64,000 nucleotides of DNA from a virus (IMGVR_UViG_3300007965_000002:1-64000), one strand, 5' to 3'. Shown: positions 5,973-32,624, counted from the stretch's first letter. Translations and numbers: made by a program. The notes: generated by a model from the sequence alone, not told the origin.

Positions 5973-6523
5973 CAACATATTTTACATCAGATTTGCATTT
6001 CCTACACAAGAATATTATTGCGTATAATAGGCCATACTACTCTGATGTAGAAGAAATGAACGAAAGTATTATCAGTACTATCAATAAAAAAGTTACACCT
6101 AATGATACCTTGTACATACTAGGTGATGTAGCTCTCGGCTCTATTACCAAAGCTGTAGATTATATATCACGTATTAACTGTAATATTAAGCTAGTACCAG
6201 GGAACCATGATAATAAGAAAGCCTTAAATGCTTATGAAAAACTATCTAATGTAGAGATTTTGCCAACACTTTGTGAGATAAAGCTAGGGGATAAGACAGT
6301 AGTACTATGTCATTTTCCACTAGTATCTTGGAATAAGATGCATCATGGGGCTTGGCACCTATTTGGCCATACCCACGGCTCTTACGAGGGATTAGGTAGA
6401 TCTATTGATATTGGTTGGGATAACTACTTCAATATATTTAATAAGCCAGGTATATTTTCCACTCAAGACTTGGTAGATATTATGGAAAATAGGCAATCAC
6501 ACCAAGTAGACCACCATAAATAA
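5969..6523 (+). CDS. calcineurin-like metallophosphoesterase
   Basis: SDLH, LGDV, GNHD, CHFP, GHTH motifs. Confidence 0.9.
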   Translation: MTTYFTSDLHFLHKNIIAYNRPYYSDVEEMNESIISTINKKVTPNDTLYILGDVALGSITKAVDYISRINCNIKLVPGNHDNKKALNAYEKLSNVEILPTLCEIKLGDKTVVLCHFPLVSWNKMHHGAWHLFGHTHGSYEGLGRSIDIGWDNYFNIFNKPGIFSTQDLVDIMENRQSHQVDHHK

Positions 6524-9322: not shown

Positions 9323-9624
9323 TACAGTACTTACAACAGATTATGGACTTAGCACTATTAAAAGATGAAGCTTTATCTATAAATGTAGGTATATGTTCAA
9401 ACCTATATTACCTATCTAATTTTAGATATGATGAAGATGATATTACTAAGTATTTCTACTCTTGGAAACATTTTTCAGGTGACTATAGGTACCCTGTGCC
9501 CTATCCGTCACTAGACCCTGATAAAGCATTTTTAACTATAGATAACCTATGGGTTGGTGAGTATGGTGAGTTACGTATTGATCTACTACAACACTTAATA
9601 GATTCGGTAGATAGATGGAGTTAA
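9313..9624 (+). CDS. hypothetical protein, paralog family W-x-GEYG-x-LR
   Basis: Same motifs as 8891. Confidence 0.75.
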   Translation: MRLVQYLQQIMDLALLKDEALSINVGICSNLYYLSNFRYDEDDITKYFYSWKHFSGDYRYPVPYPSLDPDKAFLTIDNLWVGEYGELRIDLLQHLIDSVDRWS

Positions 9625-22924: not shown

Positions 22925-23075
22925 CTAGCAATTACTTATAGATCTTGCACTAATATAGGTTTTGCACTTATACACCACAATTCCCCCTTGTTCTACAATT
23001 CTAGCAATTCCCCCTTATTCTACAATTCTAGCGATTCCCTTTGTTACATAATTCTAGCTCAATTGCTTTTTAGGG
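22925..23075 (+). repeat. tandem repeats (CT)ACAATTCTAGC(A/G)ATTCCCC
   Basis: 3-4 imperfect copies. Confidence 0.7.
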
Positions 23076-23350
23076 ATTACTCTAATTAGCTTCGGGTACC
23101 GCTTTGTTGCTTTCCGGGATAAAAATGAGCCTGGTATGCAATTTTGAGATAGTCCAAATCTCCGATTAGCTCTATTTATCCCTGAAAAGCAACCCAACGA
23201 ACCTAGTCCGCCTCGAATATCTCCCAAAAAGTCCAAATAACTCCAAATATCCCTGAAATAGCACTTTCTAGCTAGTCCAGCGAGTCACAGTGGTGAAGCC
23301 ACTGAATCCCGCTAGTCCCGGTGCACGTAATGTGAAATTCTGCTTTACAG

Positions 23351-23480
23351 ATCGGTTTCGCACTGGCGCAGGGTAGATTTTTATTTTTTGACCAAAATTT
23401 ATTTAGACTACACGTTCGGATTCGCACTTAGTCGGTTTCGCACTAGTAACCCTCGGTTTTGCACTTATCGGTTTCGCACT
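23351..23480 (+). repeat. five copies of TCGG(T/A)TT(C/T)GCACT
   Basis: At 23351, 23415, 23431, 23452 and 23467; a related copy at 22955. Confidence 0.8.
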
Positions 23481-23520
23481 AAAGCGCCGAGCTGCGCTCA
23501 CCGCCACGTGCATTCACGCT

Positions 23521-23600
23521 GGACGTCTAGCCATCCAGACTTCTAGCCGTCTAGCCATCTGGACGTCCAGCCATCTGGCCATCTAGACGTCTAGACGTCC
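23521..23600. promoter_or_regulatory. array of 10 tandem in-phase met boxes (MetJ operator-like)
   Basis: GGACGTCT AGCCATCC AGACTTCT AGCCGTCT AGCCATCT GGACGTCC AGCCATCT GGCCATCT AGACGTCT AGACGTCC; consensus AGACGTCT. Confidence 0.85.
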
Positions 23601-23672: not shown

Positions 23673-23730
23673 GTTTACGTAAACGTCAATATGCGTTTTT
23701 TCTAATGTTTACCTTTACGTAAACGTCAAC
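23673..23730. promoter_or_regulatory. three LiuR-type boxes
   Basis: GTTTACGTAAACGTCAAT (23673), GTTTACCTTTACGTAAAC (23707), CTTTACGTAAACGTCAAC (23713) versus sTTkACGTwwACGTmAAs. Confidence 0.65.
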
Positions 23731-23772
23731 TAAGTTATACAAAGTTATCCACACTGTTATACATTATCCACA

Positions 23773-23788
23773 TGGCACGTTAATTGCA
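23773..23788 (+). promoter_or_regulatory. sigma54 -24/-12 box
   Basis: TGGCACG-TTAA-TTGCA. Confidence 0.75.
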
Positions 23789-23845
23789 TAATCCCTGTAA
23801 AGCAACCTAACGAGTTATCCACAACTTATTAACAGGGTTATACCA

Positions 23846-23861
23846 CTGTATGTTTATACAG
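23846..23861. promoter_or_regulatory. LexA (SOS) box
   Basis: CTGT-ATGTTTAT-ACAG within the palindrome TACCACTGTATGTTTATACAGTGGTA. Confidence 0.75.
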
Positions 23862-24043
23862 TGGTAGTAACATGTGGATAAGTGTAAACGTCCATTTTAA
23901 GGGGTCTAAATGGCTCTGTAAGTTGCTTTCAGGGATGGGCTATATATTAGGTGGTACTAGATTCTATAGCCTGGAGGGATTATATTAGATTTACCTGTTA
24001 TAGCGTGTAAACGGCGAACTACACGCGCAAGCGTGTAGTCCTA

Positions 24044-24097
24044 TGCAAGAATCATGCCAACTATTTTTCGACGCGGTGAATGAGAATAGTTCTCATT
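24044..24097 (-). promoter_or_regulatory. composite module: sigma54 box, GC motif, Fur box
   Basis: Reverse-complement TTGGCATGATTCTTGCA (24044-24060); GACGCGGTG; AATGAGAATAGTTCTCATT (24079-24097). Confidence 0.75.
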
Positions 24098-24107
24098 TGA
24101 CTTTATG

Positions 24108-24398
24108 CTAACACTGGAAATAAATTCTGTCTACTCCTTCTAGTATATTCATTTCTTCTAATATACCATAGCCTATTGGGGCTAATTTCTTAAAGTCCTG
24201 TACTGTAAATTGTGCTACTTCACAATAAGATTCGGCCTCTATATTGTCTAGCTCTATAGTAGATTCTAGAAGTAAATCATGCCATTTATCCCTAGGGTAC
24301 GCGCATAAAAACATACCCAAATTTATATCTAAGATAGTTAATTTTTCAACACTAGAATTTTTAATACTTCCTAGTCGTGCGTTATTAGAATAGCTCAT
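24108..24398 (-). CDS. pre-early hypothetical protein
   Basis: Operonic ORF with GGAG RBS. Confidence 0.65.
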   Translation of the reverse strand: MSYSNNARLGSIKNSSVEKLTILDINLGMFLCAYPRDKWHDLLLESTIELDNIEAESYCEVAQFTVQDFKKLAPIGYGILEEMNILEGVDRIYFQC

Positions 24399-24592
24399 TT
24401 TAAAAGCTCCTTAAGTTTAGGTAAATTAGCACGCCCTAATTTATTTCGGGCGTGATCTACGTTGGCACGTTGTCTAGTGATGCGCTTTTCAATATCAGAT
24501 TTTTCATCTAATATGCTGGCTAGCTTGCTGCAAGCAAATTCGTATTGTTGCAGCAAGTATAAATAGCGCTTTTCTTTATTTGATAGGCTCAT
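24395..24592 (-). CDS. pre-early coiled-coil protein
   Basis: Coupled ORF. Confidence 0.65.
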   Translation of the reverse strand: MSLSNKEKRYLYLLQQYEFACSKLASILDEKSDIEKRITRQRANVDHARNKLGRANLPKLKELLK

Positions 24593-25032
24593 TATCCAAA
24601 CTCCACTAATGCTAGCAATTCACATTCTGCGCCCATTTCATCCTCGTTATACTGTACAGCTTCTAGGTGGTTGAAAATATCCTCGTCAAATGTTTCCTGA
24701 TAGCATTCGGTATAATCGATTGAGCAGTTTGCAACCTGTTCGCGGTTAAATTCTGCTCTAGCTTTTTCGCTGTAACCTACTCGAGTTTTTGCCTTGGCTA
24801 GTGTTTGCTCGGTAAGCCAAGTACCAATTGAATTAGAGTAATCCATTGCAACGCTTTTAGTAGATACGAAAATCGGAGCAGGGGAAGCCATAGATCTAAC
24901 TAGTCCAGTGTTTAGTTGTACTGAATGGCCGATAACAATAGTTCTATTATTATCGTGAAACGATTTGGCTGAAAAGTCTATTTTATCACCACAAAGAGAT
25001 ACAGATTGGGTAGCGCGGTTTGAGTTTTTCAT
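24592..25032 (-). CDS. pre-early hypothetical protein
   Basis: Follows the 50-nt leader repeat and a promoter. Confidence 0.7.
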   Translation of the reverse strand: MKNSNRATQSVSLCGDKIDFSAKSFHDNNRTIVIGHSVQLNTGLVRSMASPAPIFVSTKSVAMDYSNSIGTWLTEQTLAKAKTRVGYSEKARAEFNREQVANCSIDYTECYQETFDEDIFNHLEAVQYNEDEMGAECELLALVEFG

Positions 25033-25079
25033 AATTTTGAATCCTAGCTTAGTGGGTTGAAATTATTTTCTTACCCGAC
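25030..25079 (-). repeat. 50-nt identical leader/RBS repeat (second copy 25913-25962)
   Basis: CATAATTTTGAATCCTAGCTTAGTGGGTTGAAATTATTTTCTTACCCGAC occurs twice. Confidence 0.9.
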
Positions 25080-25085
25080 CAAATA

Positions 25086-25113
25086 AGTATATCACACTGA
25101 CAACTGGTAGCAA
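25086..25113 (-). promoter_or_regulatory. pre-early promoter
   Basis: TTGCTA-16-TATACT with extended -10 TG. Confidence 0.6.
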
Positions 25114-25123
25114 GTAATCTTTT

Positions 25124-25179
25124 AGCCGTCTAGACGTCCAAACCCAAAATCGGCGCAGCGAATGAGAATCATTCTCATT
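25124..25179. promoter_or_regulatory. met-box pair plus perfect Fur box
   Basis: AGCCGTCT AGACGTCC (25124-25139); AATGAGAATCATTCTCATT (25161-25179). Confidence 0.75.
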
Positions 25180-25206
25180 TAGCTTTGCGTTAACAGTGAA
25201 CTTCTA

Positions 25207-25458
25207 TTATTCAAATTCCACTAATGCTAGTAGTTTGACAATTTCATTAACACTTTGTGAACAATTGTACTTATTAGCATCTGCTAATATACCCGCTAAA
25301 TCCTCCAAATCGTAAATTCGATAATGATAACAAAACTCATAATTTTTAACTTCTGGCTTTGTTACCGAAATGTTACAATAACAATCAATTTCGTTATCAC
25401 AGCCATGTAAGTATAGTTCAACCATTACACCCCCAGAAAAGCAACAAAGCGATAACAA
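25207..25458 (-). CDS. pre-early hypothetical protein
   Basis: ORF; the true start may be the internal MVELYLHG. Confidence 0.55.
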   Translation of the reverse strand: MLSLCCFSGGVMVELYLHGCDNEIDCYCNISVTKPEVKNYEFCYHYRIYDLEDLAGILADANKYNCSQSVNEIVKLLALVEFE

Positions 25459-25603
25459 TCACCACGCCGCAACAATTAAGTAACTCAACAGCCATACGTT
25501 CTGATAATCCTAGTTTTAACGCTACCATATCAATTAAACAATTCATTAAAATGCCCCCGCAAAAAGTGCTGCCATGATGAACGTAAACATAAGCTTTGAC
25601 CAA
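25418..25603 (-). CDS. small membrane/lipoprotein-like ORF
   Basis: Hydrophobic C-terminus; start uncertain. Confidence 0.4.
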   Translation of the reverse strand: MVKAYVYVHHGSTFCGGILMNCLIDMVALKLGLSERMAVELLNCCGVVIVIALLLFWGCNG

Positions 25604-25734
25604 CCAGCCTTAAAGTCGTTTGTACCTATTGAACGAGCTATACCGATTACGCCACACAAAGCCGCTAAAATAGTTAATATTAATACTAGCATGATTATCA
25701 CCTCTAGGCTAGCCCGTAGGCTAGCCTTATCCAA
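25546..25734 (-). CDS. small membrane protein
   Basis: Two TM helices; probable start MLVLIL after GAGGTG. Confidence 0.55.
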   Translation of the reverse strand: MDKASLRASLEVIIMLVLILTILAALCGVIGIARSIGTNDFKAGWSKLMFTFIMAALFAGAF

Positions 25735-25735
25735 G

Positions 25736-25915
25736 TTAAGTAGTTGATTTAGTGGTTAATGGCACCATTTGCATTTGTGAAAATATAGCTGCTAATTCGT
25801 CACGCTCAAGTGTAACAACTACCCCCGAGTCTGTTTGCAATTTAATCACCTGCTGACCTTTCAGTGTTCTGTGTTGAACCATGTAAACGACTTCTTGCTT
25901 GCCTGAAATAAACAT
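25736..25915 (-). CDS. pre-early hypothetical protein (59 aa, not in ORF track)
   Basis: MFISGKQEVVYMVQHRTLKG...; starts at the 50-nt leader repeat. Confidence 0.65.
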   Translation of the reverse strand: MFISGKQEVVYMVQHRTLKGQQVIKLQTDSGVVVTLERDELAAIFSQMQMVPLTTKSTT

Positions 25916-25968
25916 AATTTTGAATCCTAGCTTAGTGGGTTGAAATTATTTTCTTACCCGACAAAGAC

Positions 25969-25996
25969 AGTATAGCACACTGATAAATCATATCAA
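25969..25996 (-). promoter_or_regulatory. pre-early promoter
   Basis: TTGATA-16-TATACT with extended -10 TG. Confidence 0.6.
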
Positions 25997-26249
25997 CTAT
26001 TTATTTGGTCTAAAATGAAAAACATTGTTCTTACCAGGAACCAACCAGGGTTACCGGCAGGTAAACCTGCCCAGCCAGCCAGCCTAGGCAAATATACCTA
26101 TTTCTTGCAAAAGTCGCTTAAATCGCTGTTTTGGCGGCTTCCTGTCGGTGGATAATGTATAAGGGCTGTTTCAATGATTTTTTTATCCACAGGTTATTAA
26201 CAGGTTATACATTATCAACAGGGTTTATAGGCCACCAGCAACATTTTGA

Positions 26250-26266
26250 CAATGGTAAGACCAATT
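26250..26266. promoter_or_regulatory. PdhR-type operator
   Basis: CAATGGTAAGACCAATT versus AATTGGTAAGACCAATT (15/17). Confidence 0.6.
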
Positions 26267-26348
26267 GACCAAGTTATCCACAAAATTATTTTGTTTAATG
26301 TATAACTCACCTGTTAATAAGTCTAGACTTATCCACAAGTACCACACA

Positions 26349-26447
26349 TGCAAGAATCATGCCAAAAAATTTTCGGCGCGGCGAAATGAGAATGATTCTC
26401 ATTTGCATTCAACCCAGTGAGCTACCAGGATGAGAATGATTATCATT
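26349..26447 (-). promoter_or_regulatory. composite module copy 2: sigma54 box, GC motif, two Fur boxes
   Basis: TGCAAGAATCATGCCAA (26349-26365); GGCGCGGCG; AATGAGAATGATTCTCATT (26385-26403); GATGAGAATGATTATCATT (26429-26447). Confidence 0.75.
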
Positions 26448-26470
26448 TGCATATGCAAGTTTGCTAATAC

Positions 26471-26636
26471 AAGTTGGCATGGTTTTTGTTGCGAACTATT
26501 ATCATATGCGTTTTTGCTAATATACCTATATGCAAGTTTGCTAATATTAACATTAGATTCTACTAATATAAGTTGGCATGGTTTTTGTTGCGAACTATTA
26601 TCAACAAGAATCGTGCCAAGTCAAGAATCGTGCCAT
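26471..26636. repeat. 34-bp direct repeat and four sigma54-like boxes
   Basis: AAGTTGGCATGGTTTTTGTTGCGAACTATTATCA at 26471 and 26570; reverse TGGCACGATTCTTG at 26603 and 26620. Confidence 0.7.
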
Positions 26637-27178
26637 AACAGTAAAATCTAATATATAGCTCTAGAACGCGCTATAACGTGATTTGCCGGTACTATTATTT
26701 TTTGAAGCCCTAGTATCAAAACCTTTTTAAAATGCCACCAGCAGCCAAAGCGTGACTTATCCACAAAGTTATCCACAAGCAATGGGGTTGACATTCTCAA
26801 AAGGCCATTTCTATCCACAATTTGCTAGTTATACATAAAAAATCTGTGGATAAGTGAATAACTAGCATGTTTTACAAATGTCAAATTTATTTGAAATAAT
26901 GCTTAACAAAGTTATCCCCACCTGGTAGAGCCTGGACGTGCCCCTTGTGGATAACTATTACCAAATAGGCCGATTCCTTGGATTCTAGGAAAGTTATCCA
27001 CAAAATTACAAACCAGGAAAATTATCTGTGGATAAGTGCCCTGTGGATAAGTACCAAATAGCACCAGATTCAACAATCTATTTGTTTTGATATACGACTG
27101 ACCAAAAAATTAAAGTCGCTTAAATCGCTGTTTTGATGCCTTTACGGGCATATTAGTTATATCTAATATATAACCATG

Positions 27179-27195
27179 TTGGCATGGTTATTGCT
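27179..27195 (+). promoter_or_regulatory. sigma54 -24/-12 box
   Basis: TTGGCATGGTTATTGCT. Confidence 0.7.
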
Positions 27196-27395
27196 ACGCG
27201 CTCGCACCTGTTTCTTTTATAAACTAGCCCAGGCTTATGCATTCTAGTTATAACTTATATTAACTAGTTATTAGACGGTATTTTTTAAACGTGGTCTAAT
27301 AGCTTCATTGAAACGGGACATCATTTCAATGTTATTTTTACCCTGTGATGTGAAGCGGCTTTGATTAGCGCGAGGTACTAGGAAAAAATAAAAGC

Positions 27396-27470
27396 TTGAC
27401 AATAAAAACGGTTCCATGCAATAATAGCTCCACTGATTAGGCAGCATCCTAAACGTTCTTTAACAATCTG
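27396..27470 (+). promoter_or_regulatory. pre-early promoter with rrn-like boxB hairpin and boxA
   Basis: A-tract UP element, TTGACA-18-AATAAT, TTAGG-CAGCAT-CCTAA hairpin, CGTTCTTTAACA. Confidence 0.6.
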
Positions 27471-28277: not shown

Positions 28278-28745
28278 ATGACTACAACTAAAACACCAGC
28301 TAAAAAATTCGCTTGGAATGATGAAACCTGTTCACAAGCTGCCGCGCTTTATGCTGAATTACTAGGTGCAACTTACAACCCTGTTACTAAAACGCTGGAT
28401 TTTGAAGTTGGTTCGAAGCCTACTGTCGATTTACACACGGTAGCAAACAGCGAAAAAGCTTTAAATGCAATCGCTGTTAAAATTGGGGCGAAATCTGGTC
28501 GTGCTGTTCGCGGTAAGTTATCAAAAGAGGGCGTTTATATTACCCTTGAAGCCGTCCCAACTCCAAGCACCTCGACACGTATCTCAAAAGGTCAGTACGT
28601 GCGTTCAATTGCCGAGGGTTTAGGCGTTGACCTTGAAACAATCCAAACGCTTGATAAGGCCAATTTAGAAGCGTTGGAAACCTTAACAGCGAAATTAAAC
28701 GGAGTGTTGAAAGCTGCCGAAATGCCAGAAATCACTGTTAAGTAA
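28278..28745 (+). CDS. A2: T5 A2-like DNA-binding / second-step-transfer protein
   Basis: FAWNDE..., IA..IGAKS..AVRGKLS, K.QYVR.IA resemble T5 A2; synteny with A1 and dmp. Confidence 0.8.
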   Translation: MTTTKTPAKKFAWNDETCSQAAALYAELLGATYNPVTKTLDFEVGSKPTVDLHTVANSEKALNAIAVKIGAKSGRAVRGKLSKEGVYITLEAVPTPSTSTRISKGQYVRSIAEGLGVDLETIQTLDKANLEALETLTAKLNGVLKAAEMPEITVK

Positions 28746-28782
28746 TTGTTAACTGGGCGTTAATTCTAGCGCCCTTTAATTT

Positions 28783-28798
28783 CCCGTAATGACGGAGT
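28783..28798 (+). promoter_or_regulatory. repeated hairpin-RBS leader CCCGTAATGACGGAGT (also at 29263 and 31335)
   Basis: Three identical 16-mers, each 6-8 nt before an ATG. Confidence 0.75.
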
Positions 28799-28806
28799 AT
28801 TAAAAA

Positions 28807-29244
28807 ATGTTTTCACCCAAACTCAACTTATCTGATTTAGTCGCAGAGCATAAAGGCCATATTGCAGCCGTATTAGATACCCAGTCCGAAATTGAGCGCT
28901 TAAAGGAACTAGCATTTCAGCAAAAAGAAGCGGCTAAACTTGACCGTGATACGTTAACGCAATTAATACGCCAATTGTCTAACGAGCGTCACCCAAGCAA
29001 CAACGGCATGTTGCAAGAAGCAAATGTTAGCGCTTTGCTTGGCGCAATCAATATTAACTTTACTGCTTATAACAGCTCAAATGATGAAGTTAGACTAGCG
29101 TATGATAAGGCCGTTAACGTCTACAATGACGCAATGGTAAAGCTATTTAAAGCAAAAATAGCATATATCGAAAGTTGTGCTGTTTATGGTAGTATGGCAG
29201 GCTTATCGGTTAACTGGCAAGCGCTAGAAAAACGTAGCAAGTAA
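28807..29244 (+). CDS. pre-early helical hypothetical protein
   Basis: ORF after the leader repeat. Confidence 0.7.
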   Translation: MFSPKLNLSDLVAEHKGHIAAVLDTQSEIERLKELAFQQKEAAKLDRDTLTQLIRQLSNERHPSNNGMLQEANVSALLGAININFTAYNSSNDEVRLAYDKAVNVYNDAMVKLFKAKIAYIESCAVYGSMAGLSVNWQALEKRSK

Positions 29245-29284
29245 GCAACCCCTTTAAATTTTCCCGTAATGACGGAGTAACAAA

Positions 29285-30958
29285 ATGAAACAAGTTAAAA
29301 ACCTATCTGTAGCGACACAAGCGGCATTGTTAAATCTTGCTCAAAATGAGTTTAATTATTATGGCAAGCGTACCCGTTCAACTCGCCTAACTTGTGCTGA
29401 ACAAATGCTTAGAGAATGTGAGTTAATCGGAACGGTAGAAAGTGCCGATTTAGTGGAATGGCTGGCAGAAAATAAACCAGCACCAGCACCAGCCAAAGAA
29501 AAAGCCGAAAAAGTTAACGCTCCGTTAGTTCCTACTTTCAACGGCGAGTTAATGCATCGTGACGATATTATGCAAAGCTTACCTGATGGCGTTTATATTA
29601 TTTCTAGTGCGCAAAATAATACATTGCCGCACCCTACACTAAAATCATTAAAAACTTTAGCGGGTGTTTTAGAGGCTCAACTTTTATTGATGCCTATTAA
29701 ATACACAACAACGCTTGATAGCTTGGAACGCAAAACGCCAACTTATGACGATAGTGTTACACCTTATCTAGTAGAGAATAATATCTGGCTAGGTGGTCGT
29801 GGCTGTGTTCGCTTGGCAGTTGGGGCAAATATCCTGCCAACCGCTAAGCAGCCAATTAACACGGCAGCAAACTTGAATAAAGGCGAGTCGTTAACCGTTG
29901 TTGCCTCACCTAAAAAGCAACTCAAAACACTAGCCCGTTCAAAAGATGGTGCACATCGTTGGGTATATACAACGGGTTCATGTACACAACGCCATTACAC
30001 TGACACCAGAGCAGGCGAGGAGGGATGTGATTCACATACGTTCGGGGCATTAGTTGTCACTGTTAATGAGGGTTATGTCGAGCATCAAGAAATTGTGGCA
30101 GATGAAAGCGGGGCATTTTATTATGATATGGCCTGTTATGATGGTTTTAACATAACAGAGATTCACAAGACACCAGCACTAGTTTTAGGTGACTTACATT
30201 GTGAAAAGATGTGCGAAAACTCGCTTGTAAGAGCATTAGCCCAAATTGATATTTATCAGCCCTCACAAGTTATTTTACACGATACACTAGATTTTATGTC
30301 TAGAAATCATCACAATCGAAATAGCGGTTTGTTTCTATATACAATGGGTTCCCGCTCTGTTTTAGATGATTTAAATGATGCTGTTCATGTTGTAAATAGA
30401 ATTGCTGCCCAATGCGATAGCGTTTTTATCGTTTGCAGTAATCACGACTTAGCCCTTGATAGCTGGCTTGATGACCCAAAATACAACGCTGATAAAGACC
30501 CTATCAACGCTAAAACGTATTATTTCTTGAAACATGCTGTTTTAGAAGCAATTGACAGCGGGGACGAACTAGACGCACCACGCTTAGCAATGTTTGATTT
30601 AGCAATCACTAAACTAGTCGAGCAGTTAGCGGAACCATTAGCCAGTAATGTTATATTTGGCCGTCTAGATATGAGCCATAAGATTAACGGATTCGAATGT
30701 GGTTCTCATGGGCATTTAGGTAACAGCGGCGCACGTGGTTCGCAACGCTCGTTTAAAGCTTATCAGATGCCTTGGATTAGCGGCCATACACATTCACCCG
30801 CCCGTGATGGTAATGTGTTAACCGTGGGCGTTACTGGTTCGCTGGAAATGGGCTACAATAAAGGTGGTACTATGTGGGATAGAGCAAACGCCTTAATCCT
30901 GCCAAATGATACAGCCGTATTAATTCCCACGTATGCAATAGGAGAGCAGCAAGCATAA
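29285..30958 (+). CDS. A1: T5 A1-like DNase / DNA-transfer protein
   Basis: 557 aa; IISSAQNNT, TTGSCT..HY, LGDLH, SNHD, HGH.G..GARG, GHTHSP, GVTGSL..GYNKG; synteny. Confidence 0.88.
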   Translation: MKQVKNLSVATQAALLNLAQNEFNYYGKRTRSTRLTCAEQMLRECELIGTVESADLVEWLAENKPAPAPAKEKAEKVNAPLVPTFNGELMHRDDIMQSLPDGVYIISSAQNNTLPHPTLKSLKTLAGVLEAQLLLMPIKYTTTLDSLERKTPTYDDSVTPYLVENNIWLGGRGCVRLAVGANILPTAKQPINTAANLNKGESLTVVASPKKQLKTLARSKDGAHRWVYTTGSCTQRHYTDTRAGEEGCDSHTFGALVVTVNEGYVEHQEIVADESGAFYYDMACYDGFNITEIHKTPALVLGDLHCEKMCENSLVRALAQIDIYQPSQVILHDTLDFMSRNHHNRNSGLFLYTMGSRSVLDDLNDAVHVVNRIAAQCDSVFIVCSNHDLALDSWLDDPKYNADKDPINAKTYYFLKHAVLEAIDSGDELDAPRLAMFDLAITKLVEQLAEPLASNVIFGRLDMSHKINGFECGSHGHLGNSGARGSQRSFKAYQMPWISGHTHSPARDGNVLTVGVTGSLEMGYNKGGTMWDRANALILPNDTAVLIPTYAIGEQQA

Positions 30959-31008
30959 TGTTAGATAGAGATTATAACGGCTACCCCATTAAGTAACTTA
31001 ACCCGCTT

Positions 31009-31024
31009 TGTTCCACGTGGAACA
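31009..31024. promoter_or_regulatory. parS site 1
   Basis: TGTTCCACGTGGAACA within the 24-bp perfect palindrome 31005-31028. Confidence 0.8.
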
Positions 31025-31055
31025 AAGCAACCCCCCTTTTTACGGAGTTACCCAA

Positions 31056-31292
31056 ATGTCACAAGTTAATATCACGTTTACCAAAGACACCCCAGAATCA
31101 TTCGAACCTGAAACAGGGCAATTTTTTCAGGTTAATGAATGCCATACAAACGAATTGATTTTAATAACTGACGACACCCATGTGTGCGTTATTTTATCTA
31201 GTGGTCAATTAATGGACGTTGAAAACCTAGACGAAAAGCTTACCCGCGATAACTTAGTTATTGATTTAAAAATCGAAGCAACCATTAAATAA
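31056..31292 (+). CDS. pre-early hypothetical protein (78 aa)
   Basis: GGAG RBS before ATG 31056; the track start 31008 is unlikely. Confidence 0.65.
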   Translation: MSQVNITFTKDTPESFEPETGQFFQVNECHTNELILITDDTHVCVILSSGQLMDVENLDEKLTRDNLVIDLKIEATIK

Positions 31293-31303
31293 TTAACCCG
31301 CTT

Positions 31304-31319
31304 TGTTCCACGTGGAACA
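31304..31319. promoter_or_regulatory. parS site 2
   Basis: Identical palindrome at 31300-31323. Confidence 0.8.
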
Positions 31320-31358
31320 AAGCAACCCTTTTTCCCCGTAATGACGGAGTATTAAAAA

Positions 31359-31982
31359 ATGAGCCAATTTAAGCCAAAGCATATTACAATTTTTGACCTA
31401 GACAGAACCGTTATAGATAGCGACCATCGCACCCCCTACGATAATGATGGCAACCTAGATTTAGCAGCATATCGCGACAACCAAACACACGCTAACATTA
31501 TGAATGACACACTTTTACCCTTAGCTAAACTTATGCAATCGCGCATAGCCCAAGGGGAAACCGTGGTAATCGTTACTGCAAGGCGCATGATTAAGAGTGA
31601 TTACATATACCTAAGAAAGAACGGATTAAAAACCGCGTATACTTGCAGTCGTGACCAATTATTCAAGCGCTTCGATAATGAAACCGCATCAATGATTTAT
31701 AATCTTAATGATGCAAACTACAAATGGCATTGGTTTAACCATTTACAGAACCGTTTTCCTCTTGCCTCGTTTACTGTATACGATGACCATAAAGGCGTAT
31801 TAAAGGTGGCGCAATCGTTTGGCTTTCAAGTGTACGATGCAATTAGTGTTAATAGTATGCTGGCTGATTTTCTTGATATGGGATTTGAAGAAGGATTTGC
31901 GCAAGGATTAGACGCGGGTTATCTGGACGGGGAAATGAGCGCTATTCATCAGGTAATTGAATTTGACAGCAGAGCAGCCTAA
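31359..31982 (+). CDS. dmp: deoxynucleoside-5'-monophosphatase (HAD)
   Basis: IFDLDRT, VTAR, YDDH HAD motifs; last pre-early gene, as in T5. Confidence 0.8.
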   Translation: MSQFKPKHITIFDLDRTVIDSDHRTPYDNDGNLDLAAYRDNQTHANIMNDTLLPLAKLMQSRIAQGETVVIVTARRMIKSDYIYLRKNGLKTAYTCSRDQLFKRFDNETASMIYNLNDANYKWHWFNHLQNRFPLASFTVYDDHKGVLKVAQSFGFQVYDAISVNSMLADFLDMGFEEGFAQGLDAGYLDGEMSAIHQVIEFDSRAA

Positions 31983-32103
31983 GCGCAATGCTGGTAGTAT
32001 ATGCATCAATGCTAATATAGTGCAATATGTTAGCATTGCATTATCCCCCTGTTAGAGCATTAGCCCTTACTAATATATAGTAAGGGCATTTTTATTATGT
32101 ACA

Positions 32104-32208
32104 AATGATAATCAATATCAAATGAGAATCATTCGCATATGATAAGCCAGGAACAAATGATAATCATTCGCATTTAGGGTGGGGGCGGTAATGAGACTCA
32201 TTCTCATT
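32104..32208. promoter_or_regulatory. four Fur boxes
   Basis: At 32104, 32121, 32156 and 32190 (e.g. AATGATAATCATTCGCATT, AATGAGACTCATTCTCATT). Confidence 0.7.
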
Positions 32209-32305
32209 TGACCCAGGCCCCACCCCTTTTCATGTAACTACTATGAAAAATTAGAGGAAATGGCTTAGGCCGCCTCTAAGAGCAACTAAGCGGTTCCCTG
32301 AAAGC

Positions 32306-32455
32306 AACTATGCATAATTCCCCAACTATGCATAATTCCCATAACTATACATAATTCCCATAACTATGCATAATTCCCCTAACTCCCTATACTCCCTTTA
32401 CTTCCCAACTTCCTATACTCCCTTTACTTCCTATACTCCCCGCACCCCTCCACTC
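32306..32455 (+). repeat. short tandem repeats near the inferred genome end
   Basis: AACTAT(G/A)CATAATTCCC x4, then CCTATACTCCCTTTACTT-like repeats. Confidence 0.8.
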
Positions 32456-32624
32456 CCAAAGAGACTACTAATCTAAAAGACTCCAAATACAATTCTTAAT
32501 TTTTTAATTTAAAAATACTTGGCTAGTACCTTACTTGCATCCGAGGTAGAAAATTAATCTTTACATATATTAATAATAACGTTATAATAACCCTATTATT
32601 AACACACATCTAAGAGGAAAGTAT

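Follow-up and report, generated by a model that had tools for sequence, protein, structure and literature searches.

Eight sigma-54-type (-24/-12) boxes, four of them with the full consensus, are clustered in the pre-early control region of a marine, uncultured T5-like phage. Our preferred reading, to which we give a probability of about 45%, is that the host RNA polymerase-sigma-54 holoenzyme genuinely docks at these boxes, which the marine, Vibrio-type T5-like lineage conserves in the non-coding control DNA of its terminal repeats as poised pre-early control elements. The window analysed here comprises the first 64,000 nucleotides (IMGVR_UViG_3300007965_000002:1-64000) of an 89,861-nt contig.

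The window has the pre-early synteny of T5, namely a dmp-A1-A2 operon, a divergent promoter region, small ORFs transcribed in the opposite direction, a repeat block and the early genes; relative to the standard T5 map, its plus strand is reverse-complemented. Within the terminal-repeat region of first-step transfer, the boxes occupy the counterparts of T5 repeat regions 1-3. The contig, labelled linear in IMG/VR, contains a single copy of the terminal repeat, which is probably collapsed. The boxes of Vibrio phage Quinn recur at a constant offset of 119,733 nt, which reveals the terminal repeat in that genome, and the annotations of VF16 and phi 3 place the conserved module described below within the left terminal repeat. 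Two-step DNA transfer with a pause is known only for T5 and BF23; by analogy, the boxes would sit in the 8-10 kb segment that is the first to enter the cell, where the host machinery reading it is still unmodified. No DNA-level relative turned up in a megablast of 10 kb, an IMG/VR search with A1 found none either, and neither the tRNA nor the Rfam scan of the window gave a hit.

The exact pattern TGGCAYG-N4-TTGC occurs four times in the window (23773+, 24045-, 26350- and 27180+) against 0.01 expected by chance. Relaxing it to TGGCAYG-N4-TTG gives eight matches against 0.10 expected, adding 26475+, 26574+, ~26605- and ~26622- (Table 1). The entire contig has no consensus box beyond these four, and the backwards control gave zero; all eight boxes fall within 3.4 kb, with none further in the 90 kb. 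Four boxes have GG at -24 and GC at -12 at the exact spacing that defines a sigma-54 site (TGGCAC-N5-TTGC), and the other four keep TGGCAYG and TTG intact with T or A replacing C at -12. Because 24045 and 26350, 26475 and 26574, and ~26605 and ~26622 are copies within longer repeats, the eight boxes represent about five independent sequences. An earlier note on this DNA had reported four consensus boxes and four with a weaker -12 element, several pointing into non-coding DNA or at each other. Both the count and the geometry were confirmed, with coordinates right within 1-2 nt: 23773+ and 24045- are convergent, 26475+ and 26574+ stand face to face with ~26605- and ~26622- at gaps of 20-150 nt, and two boxes face gene-free DNA. 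Its statement that there were no obvious genes was only partly right, as six minus-strand ORFs and the A2-like/A1/dmp operon, which starts from 27577, flank the boxes. The small ORFs had no matches in Pfam, PHROG or phage tblastn, and their two cassettes share a 94-nt leader bearing a sigma70-type promoter. Downstream of 23773+ and 24045- there are no ORFs and no significant RNA structure; a candidate structured RNA at 23798-24034 (z = -2.2) was rejected, since DNA palindromes account for it, and the fold of 27205-27395 is not significant (z = -1.0).

Table 1. Sigma-54 boxes and neighbouring features, in window coordinates.
Feature	Position	Strand	Remarks
Met-box-like array of ten tandem 8-nt units	23516..23599		probable inner edge of terminal repeat
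Four perfect DnaA boxes and LexA-type palindrome (23846-23861)	23745..23881		injection-stop-like repeat block
Consensus sigma-54 box, TGGCACG-N4-TTGC	23773..23787	+	adjoins DnaA box; first element of module sigma54-DnaA-LexA-DnaA
Consensus sigma-54 box	24045..24059	-	convergent with 23773+; Fur-like palindrome 24079-24097, 20 nt upstream
Six small ORFan ORFs	24108..25915	-	tightly packed in two cassettes; positional equivalents of T5 ORF011-017
Ten perfect DnaA boxes	26183..27050		among sigma-54 boxes; divergent pre-early control region
Consensus sigma-54 box	26350..26364	-	direct-repeat copy of the 24045 unit including Fur-like palindrome (26385-26403); faces minus-strand ORF block
Box with TTGT at -12	26475..26489	+	in 41-nt repeat; overlaps sigma70-type promoter TTGGCA-17-TATTAT (26474-26502)
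Second copy of 26475 box	26574..26588	+	overlapping sigma70-type promoter also copied (26573-26601)
Box with TTGT at -12	26604..26618	-	tandem partner of ~26622 box
Box with TTGA at -12	26621..26635	-	TTGACT is also the -35 of sigma70-type promoter TTGACT-16-GATAAT
Y element, consensus box with TACGCG extension	27180..27200	+	same orientation as the pre-early operon sigma70 promoter, which follows ~215 nt downstream
Sigma70 promoter of pre-early operon	27396..27425	+	near-consensus TTGACA-18-AATAAT with TG; aligns with Quinn counterpart
Pre-early genes	28278..31982	+	A2-like DNA-binding protein 28278-28745; A1 DNA-transfer protein 29285-30958; dmp-like phosphatase 31359-31982

The boxes are interspersed among DnaA, LexA-type and Fur-like sites, with 14 perfect DnaA boxes between 23745 and 27050, and the two non-coding blocks are linked by inverted repeats I8 and I25 and direct repeats D15 and D18. 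The block in the window is homologous to the enteric IRC/IRD region, the homology being detectable in the DnaA/LexA part of the module. The T5 'palindrome D' is a perfect LexA-type box, and the slot taken by the sigma-54 box in the Vibrio phages holds a different palindrome in the enteric phages.

The same motif recurs in cultured relatives. Five complete Vibrio T5-like genomes carry one to six consensus boxes each, and all 17 boxes lie in the terminal-repeat control regions, with none elsewhere in 110-128 kb. No sigma-54 box was found in four enteric T5-like genomes, T5 among them. A logo built from 25 boxes of six phages reads T-TGGCA(C/T)G-R-TT-N-TTGC-W (T at -1 in 15/25, G at position 7 in 22/25, R in 21/25, C in 19/25 and W in 20/25), with a TT-rich spacer, and it matches the extended consensus YTGGCACGrNNNTTGCW. 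Conservation is confined to the -24 and -12 elements; the flanks are unconserved and the spacers vary between phages, which fits selection on the two elements themselves. The elements of the module sigma54-DnaA-DnaA-LexA are spaced identically in Quinn, Achelous, JSF10 and VPG01; the window has a variant of the module and shares its convergent layout with VPG01. In both the window and Quinn, the Y box precedes the first pre-early gene by ~400 nt and lies within an island of identity of ~50 nt, surrounded by otherwise diverged DNA.

The Y element, in which TACGCG and a tract of alternating purines and pyrimidines come after TTGC, belongs to a phage-specific class of its own. At least 118 viral contigs contain an element of this class and 4 contain the control, an enrichment of at least 30-fold, and the identical 21-mer of 27180..27200 occurs in Quinn and 36 viral contigs. 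An origin of the Y element from host promoters was rejected in view of its frequency in bacterial genomes, which is only at about chance level. Among unrelated phages, downstream early genes are co-oriented with the element at 45 loci and opposite at 6, and further boxes upstream of it have the same orientation in 59 cases against 15, the Y element being the last box of same-orientation arrays. The bipartite motif is kept across phages of 31 to 55% GC that share no proteins. This class suggests that many unrelated phages engage the sigma-54 polymerase at the heads of their early regions, in a way unlike host promoters. The block after the 27180 box was also considered as a nick site, and the nick consensus was absent from the BF23 paper. 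What our preferred explanation does not account for is the Y extension itself, TACGCG with a CG-rich alternating tract where the DNA has to melt; bacterial promoters lack this extension.

It is very unlikely, in our estimation, that the boxes are read by something other than sigma-54, such as a pre-early phage protein like A2, or that the weak boxes are no more than sigma70 promoter -35 elements of the form TTGGCA. This idea draws on the sigma70-type promoters that coincide with the weak boxes 26475+, 26574+ and ~26622- (Table 1), and on the conservation of Y beyond known sigma-54 needs in an extended form absent from bacteria. However, a -35 element leaves the conserved TTGC 11 nt further on unexplained, and an asymmetric bipartite motif with an exact 4-nt spacing and a free spacer, kept across such differing phages, is best fitted by a universally conserved reader.

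None of the phages examined encodes sigma-54 or an activator, and the contig and the five complete Vibrio T5-like genomes had no match to PF04552 and none above threshold to PF00158, so that the earlier note's observation of a missing activator holds. Searches near the boxes with LuxO- and NtrC-type consensus sequences found no enhancer sites; the palindromes nearest the boxes, at about -55, are too close for a classical enhancer. A host-encoded activator is possible, and the Vibrio hosts of the relatives possess RpoN (PMC3439928). Salmonella rpoN phage resistance was rejected as evidence, since its authors credit glutamine and RpoS (PMC8744999) and the enteric T5-like phages examined have no boxes.

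Could the boxes then be ordinary active sigma-54 promoters, all or most of which fire in infection through a host activator that is free in solution or bound at unrecognised sites? In that case the pre-early operons and unannotated small or antisense RNAs would be transcribed from them, tying phage start-up to host physiology. The lytic Pseudomonas phage YuA provides a precedent, since it employs promoters of the sigma-54 type, and mapping of the transcription start has confirmed one of them (Ceyssens 2008, as cited in PMC10914365). The co-orientation of the Y class with early genes and its place at the end of same-orientation arrays are in line with firing; 26350- and 27180+ face operons, and 23773+ would yield an RNA antisense to the small-ORF block. 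On the other hand, enhancer sites were not found, face-to-face pairs are poorly placed for productive transcription, the -12 element of four boxes is non-consensus, neither ORFs nor significant RNA structure lie downstream of 23773+ and 24045-, and strong sigma70 promoters are already there. Since each operon has its own sigma70 promoter, expression does not depend on the sigma-54 boxes. We regard general firing as quite unlikely.

The opposite possibility, proposed by the earlier note, is that the boxes are inert clamps rather than promoters, serving as a roadblock, anchor or sigma-54 sink. Sharpened by the context found in the present analysis, the proposal becomes that closed sigma-54 complexes together with DnaA, LexA and other host proteins would form a nucleoprotein plug or anchor on the incoming repeat, with no transcription intended, and this plug would pause transfer at the first-step boundary or protect or position that DNA. 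Several parts of the proposal stand: the consensus, the absence of a phage activator, the non-productive geometry, and the E. coli ChIP mapping in which the sigma-54 holoenzyme rests inactive on its sites (PMC4591121). The DnaA/LexA module is flanked by the convergent boxes 23773+ and 24045- in a block that matches the T5 injection stop signal in position, the layout in VPG01 is convergent too, and the palindrome in the enteric counterpart of the sigma-54 slot looks as if any tight host binder sufficed. The T5 stop requires no new protein synthesis and is absent with FhuA proteoliposomes (Davison, bioRxiv 10.1101/866236), which points to pre-existing cell factors. The CG-rich tract in the melting region could hold the complex closed. 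Other parts fared less well. The E. coli data show no roadblock effect of the holoenzyme on transcription (PMC4591121). Proteins on already internal DNA do not obviously block further entry, similar arrays occur in many phages not known for two-step injection, and the fixed direction of the Y class relative to genes is not expected of a passive clamp or sink, which should be direction-blind. The claim that the boxes are not promoters is weakened by two weak boxes that lie on good sigma70-type promoters and by YuA, a lytic phage that fires sigma-54-type promoters. The sink is unlikely, because an E. coli cell holds roughly a hundred sigma-54 molecules and each injected repeat brings eight sites. 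We consider inert clamping as a whole unlikely. Its most specific form, in which locked closed complexes build the pausing plug with DnaA and LexA and the CG-rich tract prevents opening, is quite unlikely; if true, it would name concrete host factors for the T5-type injection stop and make the sigma-54 polymerase a structural DNA-binding protein.

For the poised control elements that we prefer, the following course may be envisaged. Since the phage has neither sigma-54 nor an activator, pre-existing host holoenzyme would bind as the DNA enters, and only the action of a host enhancer-binding ATPase would open the complex. The Y box and 26350-, which point into the two divergent pre-early operons upstream of constitutive sigma70 promoters, could be activator-gated auxiliary promoters. 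The boxes 26475+, 26574+ and ~26622- would instead act by occupancy on the sigma70-type promoters that they overlap, via occlusion or architecture, sigma-54 being reported to repress at sites shared with another promoter (PMC4591121); the convergent boxes around the DnaA/LexA module may likewise have an occupancy effect of either kind. Cultured relatives make these sites testable, namely Thalassavirus on Vibrio campbellii/harveyi and JSF10 and phi 3 on V. cholerae.

Compared with bacterial -24/-12 promoters such as glnAp2 and pspA and with the E. coli ChIP sites (PMC4591121), the phage boxes have the same bipartite consensus and exact spacing, and the holoenzyme is expected to be bound without firing. 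As among those ChIP sites, some boxes overlap other promoters, a layout reported to be repressive (PMC4591121). Unlike bacterial promoters, they occur in a lytic phage, eight within 3.4 kb and several face to face; they lack a cognate activator gene and any enhancer that could be recognised, and one of them has the TACGCG/alternating-tract extension. Phage YuA is likewise lytic, lacks a sigma-54 of its own and bears host sigma-54-type promoter sequences, one with a mapped start; it differs in being an unrelated siphovirus whose sites are not in a terminal-repeat cluster, do not lie among DnaA, LexA or Fur-like sites and form no convergent pairs.

How T5-like transfer halts once the first 8% of the genome has entered and how pre-early genes are controlled are decades-old questions, and DnaA boxes are so far the sole sequence-based proposal for the T5-type stop. 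With the repeat regions and injection stop signal of the T5 left repeat, where DnaA boxes occur in pairs (Davison, bioRxiv 10.1101/866236; Wang 2005 annotation, AY587007), the marine phage shares the gene order from dmp-A1-A2 to the repeat block, and DnaA boxes and inverted and direct repeats are common to both non-coding blocks. The Davison preprint (bioRxiv 10.1101/866236) says nothing of sigma-54, LexA, promoters or RNA polymerase, and T5 and three enteric relatives, unlike the marine phages, have no sigma-54 boxes. In the marine branch, judged from sequence, the conserved non-coding modules also bear consensus sigma-54 polymerase sites. Together with the LexA-type palindrome D of T5, these sites make the region look like a mosaic of host-protein sites that can be swapped between lineages.

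The window contains four copies of the consensus sigma-54 (-24/-12) box, TGGCAYG-N4-TTGC, against 0.01 expected from dinucleotide-preserving shuffles. These four are the only ones in the 89,861-nt contig, and the backwards control pattern gave none. When the final C was dropped, eight sites were found against 0.10 expected, all within 3.4 kb. Three pairs of them are duplicates carried by longer repeats, which leaves about five independent sequences. Pattern searching reproduced the positions in the earlier note to within 1-2 nt, and the face-to-face geometry described there is real. Among the weak boxes, ATATGCAAGTTTGCTAATA occurs three times (26445-26548) and includes the palindrome TTGCATATGCAA.

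Sigma-54 boxes and T5-map counterparts in the window
Feature	Position	Strand	Basis
Consensus box	23773	+	consensus pattern search
Consensus box	24045	-	consensus pattern search
Consensus box	26350	-	consensus pattern search
Consensus box	27180	+	consensus pattern search
Weak box without final C	26475	+	relaxed pattern search
Weak box without final C	26574	+	relaxed pattern search
Weak box without final C	26605	-	relaxed pattern search
Weak box without final C	26622	-	relaxed pattern search
T5 repeat region 3 counterpart (region with injection stop signal)	22.5-24.1 kb		T5 map comparison
T5 ORF011-017 counterparts (ORFs)	24108-25915	-	T5 map comparison
Repeat regions 1 and 2 counterpart, divergent pre-early promoters	25.9-27.57 kb		T5 map comparison
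A2-A1-dmp operon	next after 25.9-27.57 kb		T5 map comparison

A 557-aa ORF (29285-30958) encodes A1, the pre-early 'DNA transfer' protein of T5 (phrog_1745, E = 2e-145), and shares 49% identity with the A1 proteins of Vibrio T5-like phages. On either side of it lie genes for a DNA-binding protein of A2 type and a dmp-like phosphatase, and the pre-early genes are followed by those for terminase, portal, head and tail. Relative to the standard T5 map, the plus strand of the window is the reverse complement. From the map correspondence with the left terminal repeat annotated in T5 and with Vibrio phage Quinn, we place the boxes in terminal-repeat, first-step-transfer DNA, the repeat boundaries and 'first injected' status being assigned by analogy with T5 and annotated relatives. 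The terminal repeat has probably been collapsed to a single copy in the contig. Six ATCGGTTTCGCACT copies (22955-23480) lie just beyond the probable boundary, similar in position to the DRD repeats straddling the T5 terminal-repeat end. A second repeat block after dmp (32097-32460), where the terminal repeat probably has its outer end, contains three Fur-like palindromes (32121, 32156 and 32190), a 19-nt repeat in four copies, and C/T-rich 9-nt repeats directly 5' of the small terminase gene. Three pre-early genes, A1 and dmp among them, have immediately before their start codons a 30-nt leader that forms a small hairpin (CCGT-AATG-ACGG; 28780-28809, 29260-29289 and 31332-31361) and may be their common translational operator.

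Cultured Vibrio relatives carry consensus boxes in the same control regions of the terminal repeat: four in Quinn, two per repeat copy at a fixed offset of 119,733 nt, and six, two, one and four in the whole genomes of D332, JSF10, Achelous and VPG01, respectively. None lies outside these regions in the five genomes (110-128 kb), and the four enteric T5-like genomes sampled (T5, OSYSP, Klebsiella K7_rec11 and Proteus Stubb) have none at all. TGGCA(C/T)G and TTGC(A/T) are kept while spacers vary between phages, and 25 boxes combined give a logo that matches the textbook sigma-54 consensus, the flanks being unconserved. One conserved position is a module of a sigma-54 box, two DnaA boxes and a LexA-type box, with identical spacing in Quinn, Achelous and JSF10, mirrored in VPG01 and present as a variant at 23773-23881. 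Its DnaA/LexA part has its homologue in the IRC/IRD region of enteric phages, whereas its sigma-54 part was found in 65 Vibrio phage records only; in T5 and its enteric kin a degenerate Fur-like palindrome occupies that slot. The other conserved position, shared by the window and Quinn, is the 27180 box, which precedes the first pre-early gene by about 400 nt, inside a ~50-nt identity island amid diverged DNA and with a conserved TTGACA sigma70 promoter about 215 nt beyond.

The non-coding blocks carrying the boxes also hold 14 perfect DnaA boxes, a LexA-type CTGT-N8-ACAG palindrome (23846-23861), a tandem 8-nt array and Fur-like palindromes, of which the window has nine (0.07 expected). DnaA boxes are already known from the corresponding part of enteric T5-like genomes, and a role in stopping injection has been proposed for them (Davison preprint), with no mention there of sigma-54, LexA, promoters or RNA polymerase. 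In T5, 'palindrome D' and the partner it has in repeat region 2 are perfect LexA-type boxes (T5 6137-6152 and 9332-9347), and such a box closes the DnaA module in all T5-like phages examined, enteric and Vibrio. The palindrome GTTTACGTAAAC occurs twice (23673-23724) between Fur-like palindromes and DnaA boxes, and two minus-strand Chi octamers (26232-26239 and 26735-26742) lie among DnaA boxes. Perfect parS-type palindromes stand on either side of a 94-aa ORF (31009-31024 and 31304-31319).

The 27180 box extends into TACGCG and a CG-rich alternating purine-pyrimidine tract (27195-27215, about -11 to +10). A 21-mer across this box and flank matched 36 IMG/VR contigs exactly, most of them not T5-like (without A1, A2 or dmp; GC 31 to 55%). 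With the spacer freed, TGGCAYG-N4-TTGCTACGCG gave at least 118 viral matches against four for the backwards control, an enrichment of the extension of at least 30-fold in viral contigs; 596 Gb of bacterial genomes gave 113, roughly the chance number, scattered over many phyla. Among the matches listed, 111 non-redundant viral contexts showed a free spacer and a similar tract from -11 on, with at least 10 alternating positions in 48% against about 6% expected. In this set, downstream genes were co-oriented at 45 loci and opposed at six, and other boxes within 400 nt upstream shared the orientation in 59 cases and not in 15. The extension occupies DNA that must melt for initiation. At the loci inspected, this Y element marks junctions of structural/terminase genes with small early-type ORF arrays, with a sigma70-type promoter downstream. 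Fur-like palindromes (TGAGAATCA.TCTCA type) occur in Quinn (L006:4205-4225) and, about 150 nt downstream of the Y boxes, at IMG/VR loci L026 and L041 of unrelated phages; in operator-like placement, they follow the sigma70 promoter and precede the ribosome-binding site that serves the first early gene.

The motif and its conservation pattern give good support to reading the boxes as sigma-54 holoenzyme sites, as does the fact that phages with no kinship to one another would need a reader that is universally conserved. Several points speak against ordinary promoters: neither sigma-54 nor an enhancer-binding ATPase is encoded in the contig, nor in five complete relatives; no LuxO- or NtrC-type enhancer sites were found near the boxes; a sigma70 promoter is already present for each operon; the DNA on which several boxes converge is free of genes; and downstream RNA folds are unremarkable. 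The same note read them as inert RNAP-sigma54 clamps or anchors, an idea that gains context because a convergent pair is located in the block resembling the injection stop. The T5 injection stop appears to depend on pre-existing cell factors (Davison preprint). Pure clamps nevertheless remain a minority reading, since the Y class is directional relative to genes, bound inactive holoenzyme did not act as a transcriptional roadblock in E. coli (PMC4591121), and phage YuA is a lytic phage in which promoters of sigma-54 type can fire (PMC10914365). The sigma-54 sink variant is unlikely on grounds of stoichiometry. Because these points stand against both pure clamps and ordinary promoters, we favor poised control elements, at a probability of roughly 0.45: 27180+ and 26350- would be activator-gated auxiliary promoters, and the remaining boxes would work by occupancy, through occlusion or architecture. 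Sigma-54 has been reported to repress where its site overlaps another promoter (PMC4591121), a layout seen here at three weak boxes, which good sigma70-type promoters overlap.

Phage YuA is a published precedent for sigma-54-type sites in phages (PMC10914365); our literature search found no paper placing them in T5-like first-step-transfer regions. New here are the phage-specific extended sigma-54 box, the integration of sigma-54 boxes in the DnaA/LexA module that marine T5-like phages conserve, and the absence of such boxes from the four enteric T5-like genomes.
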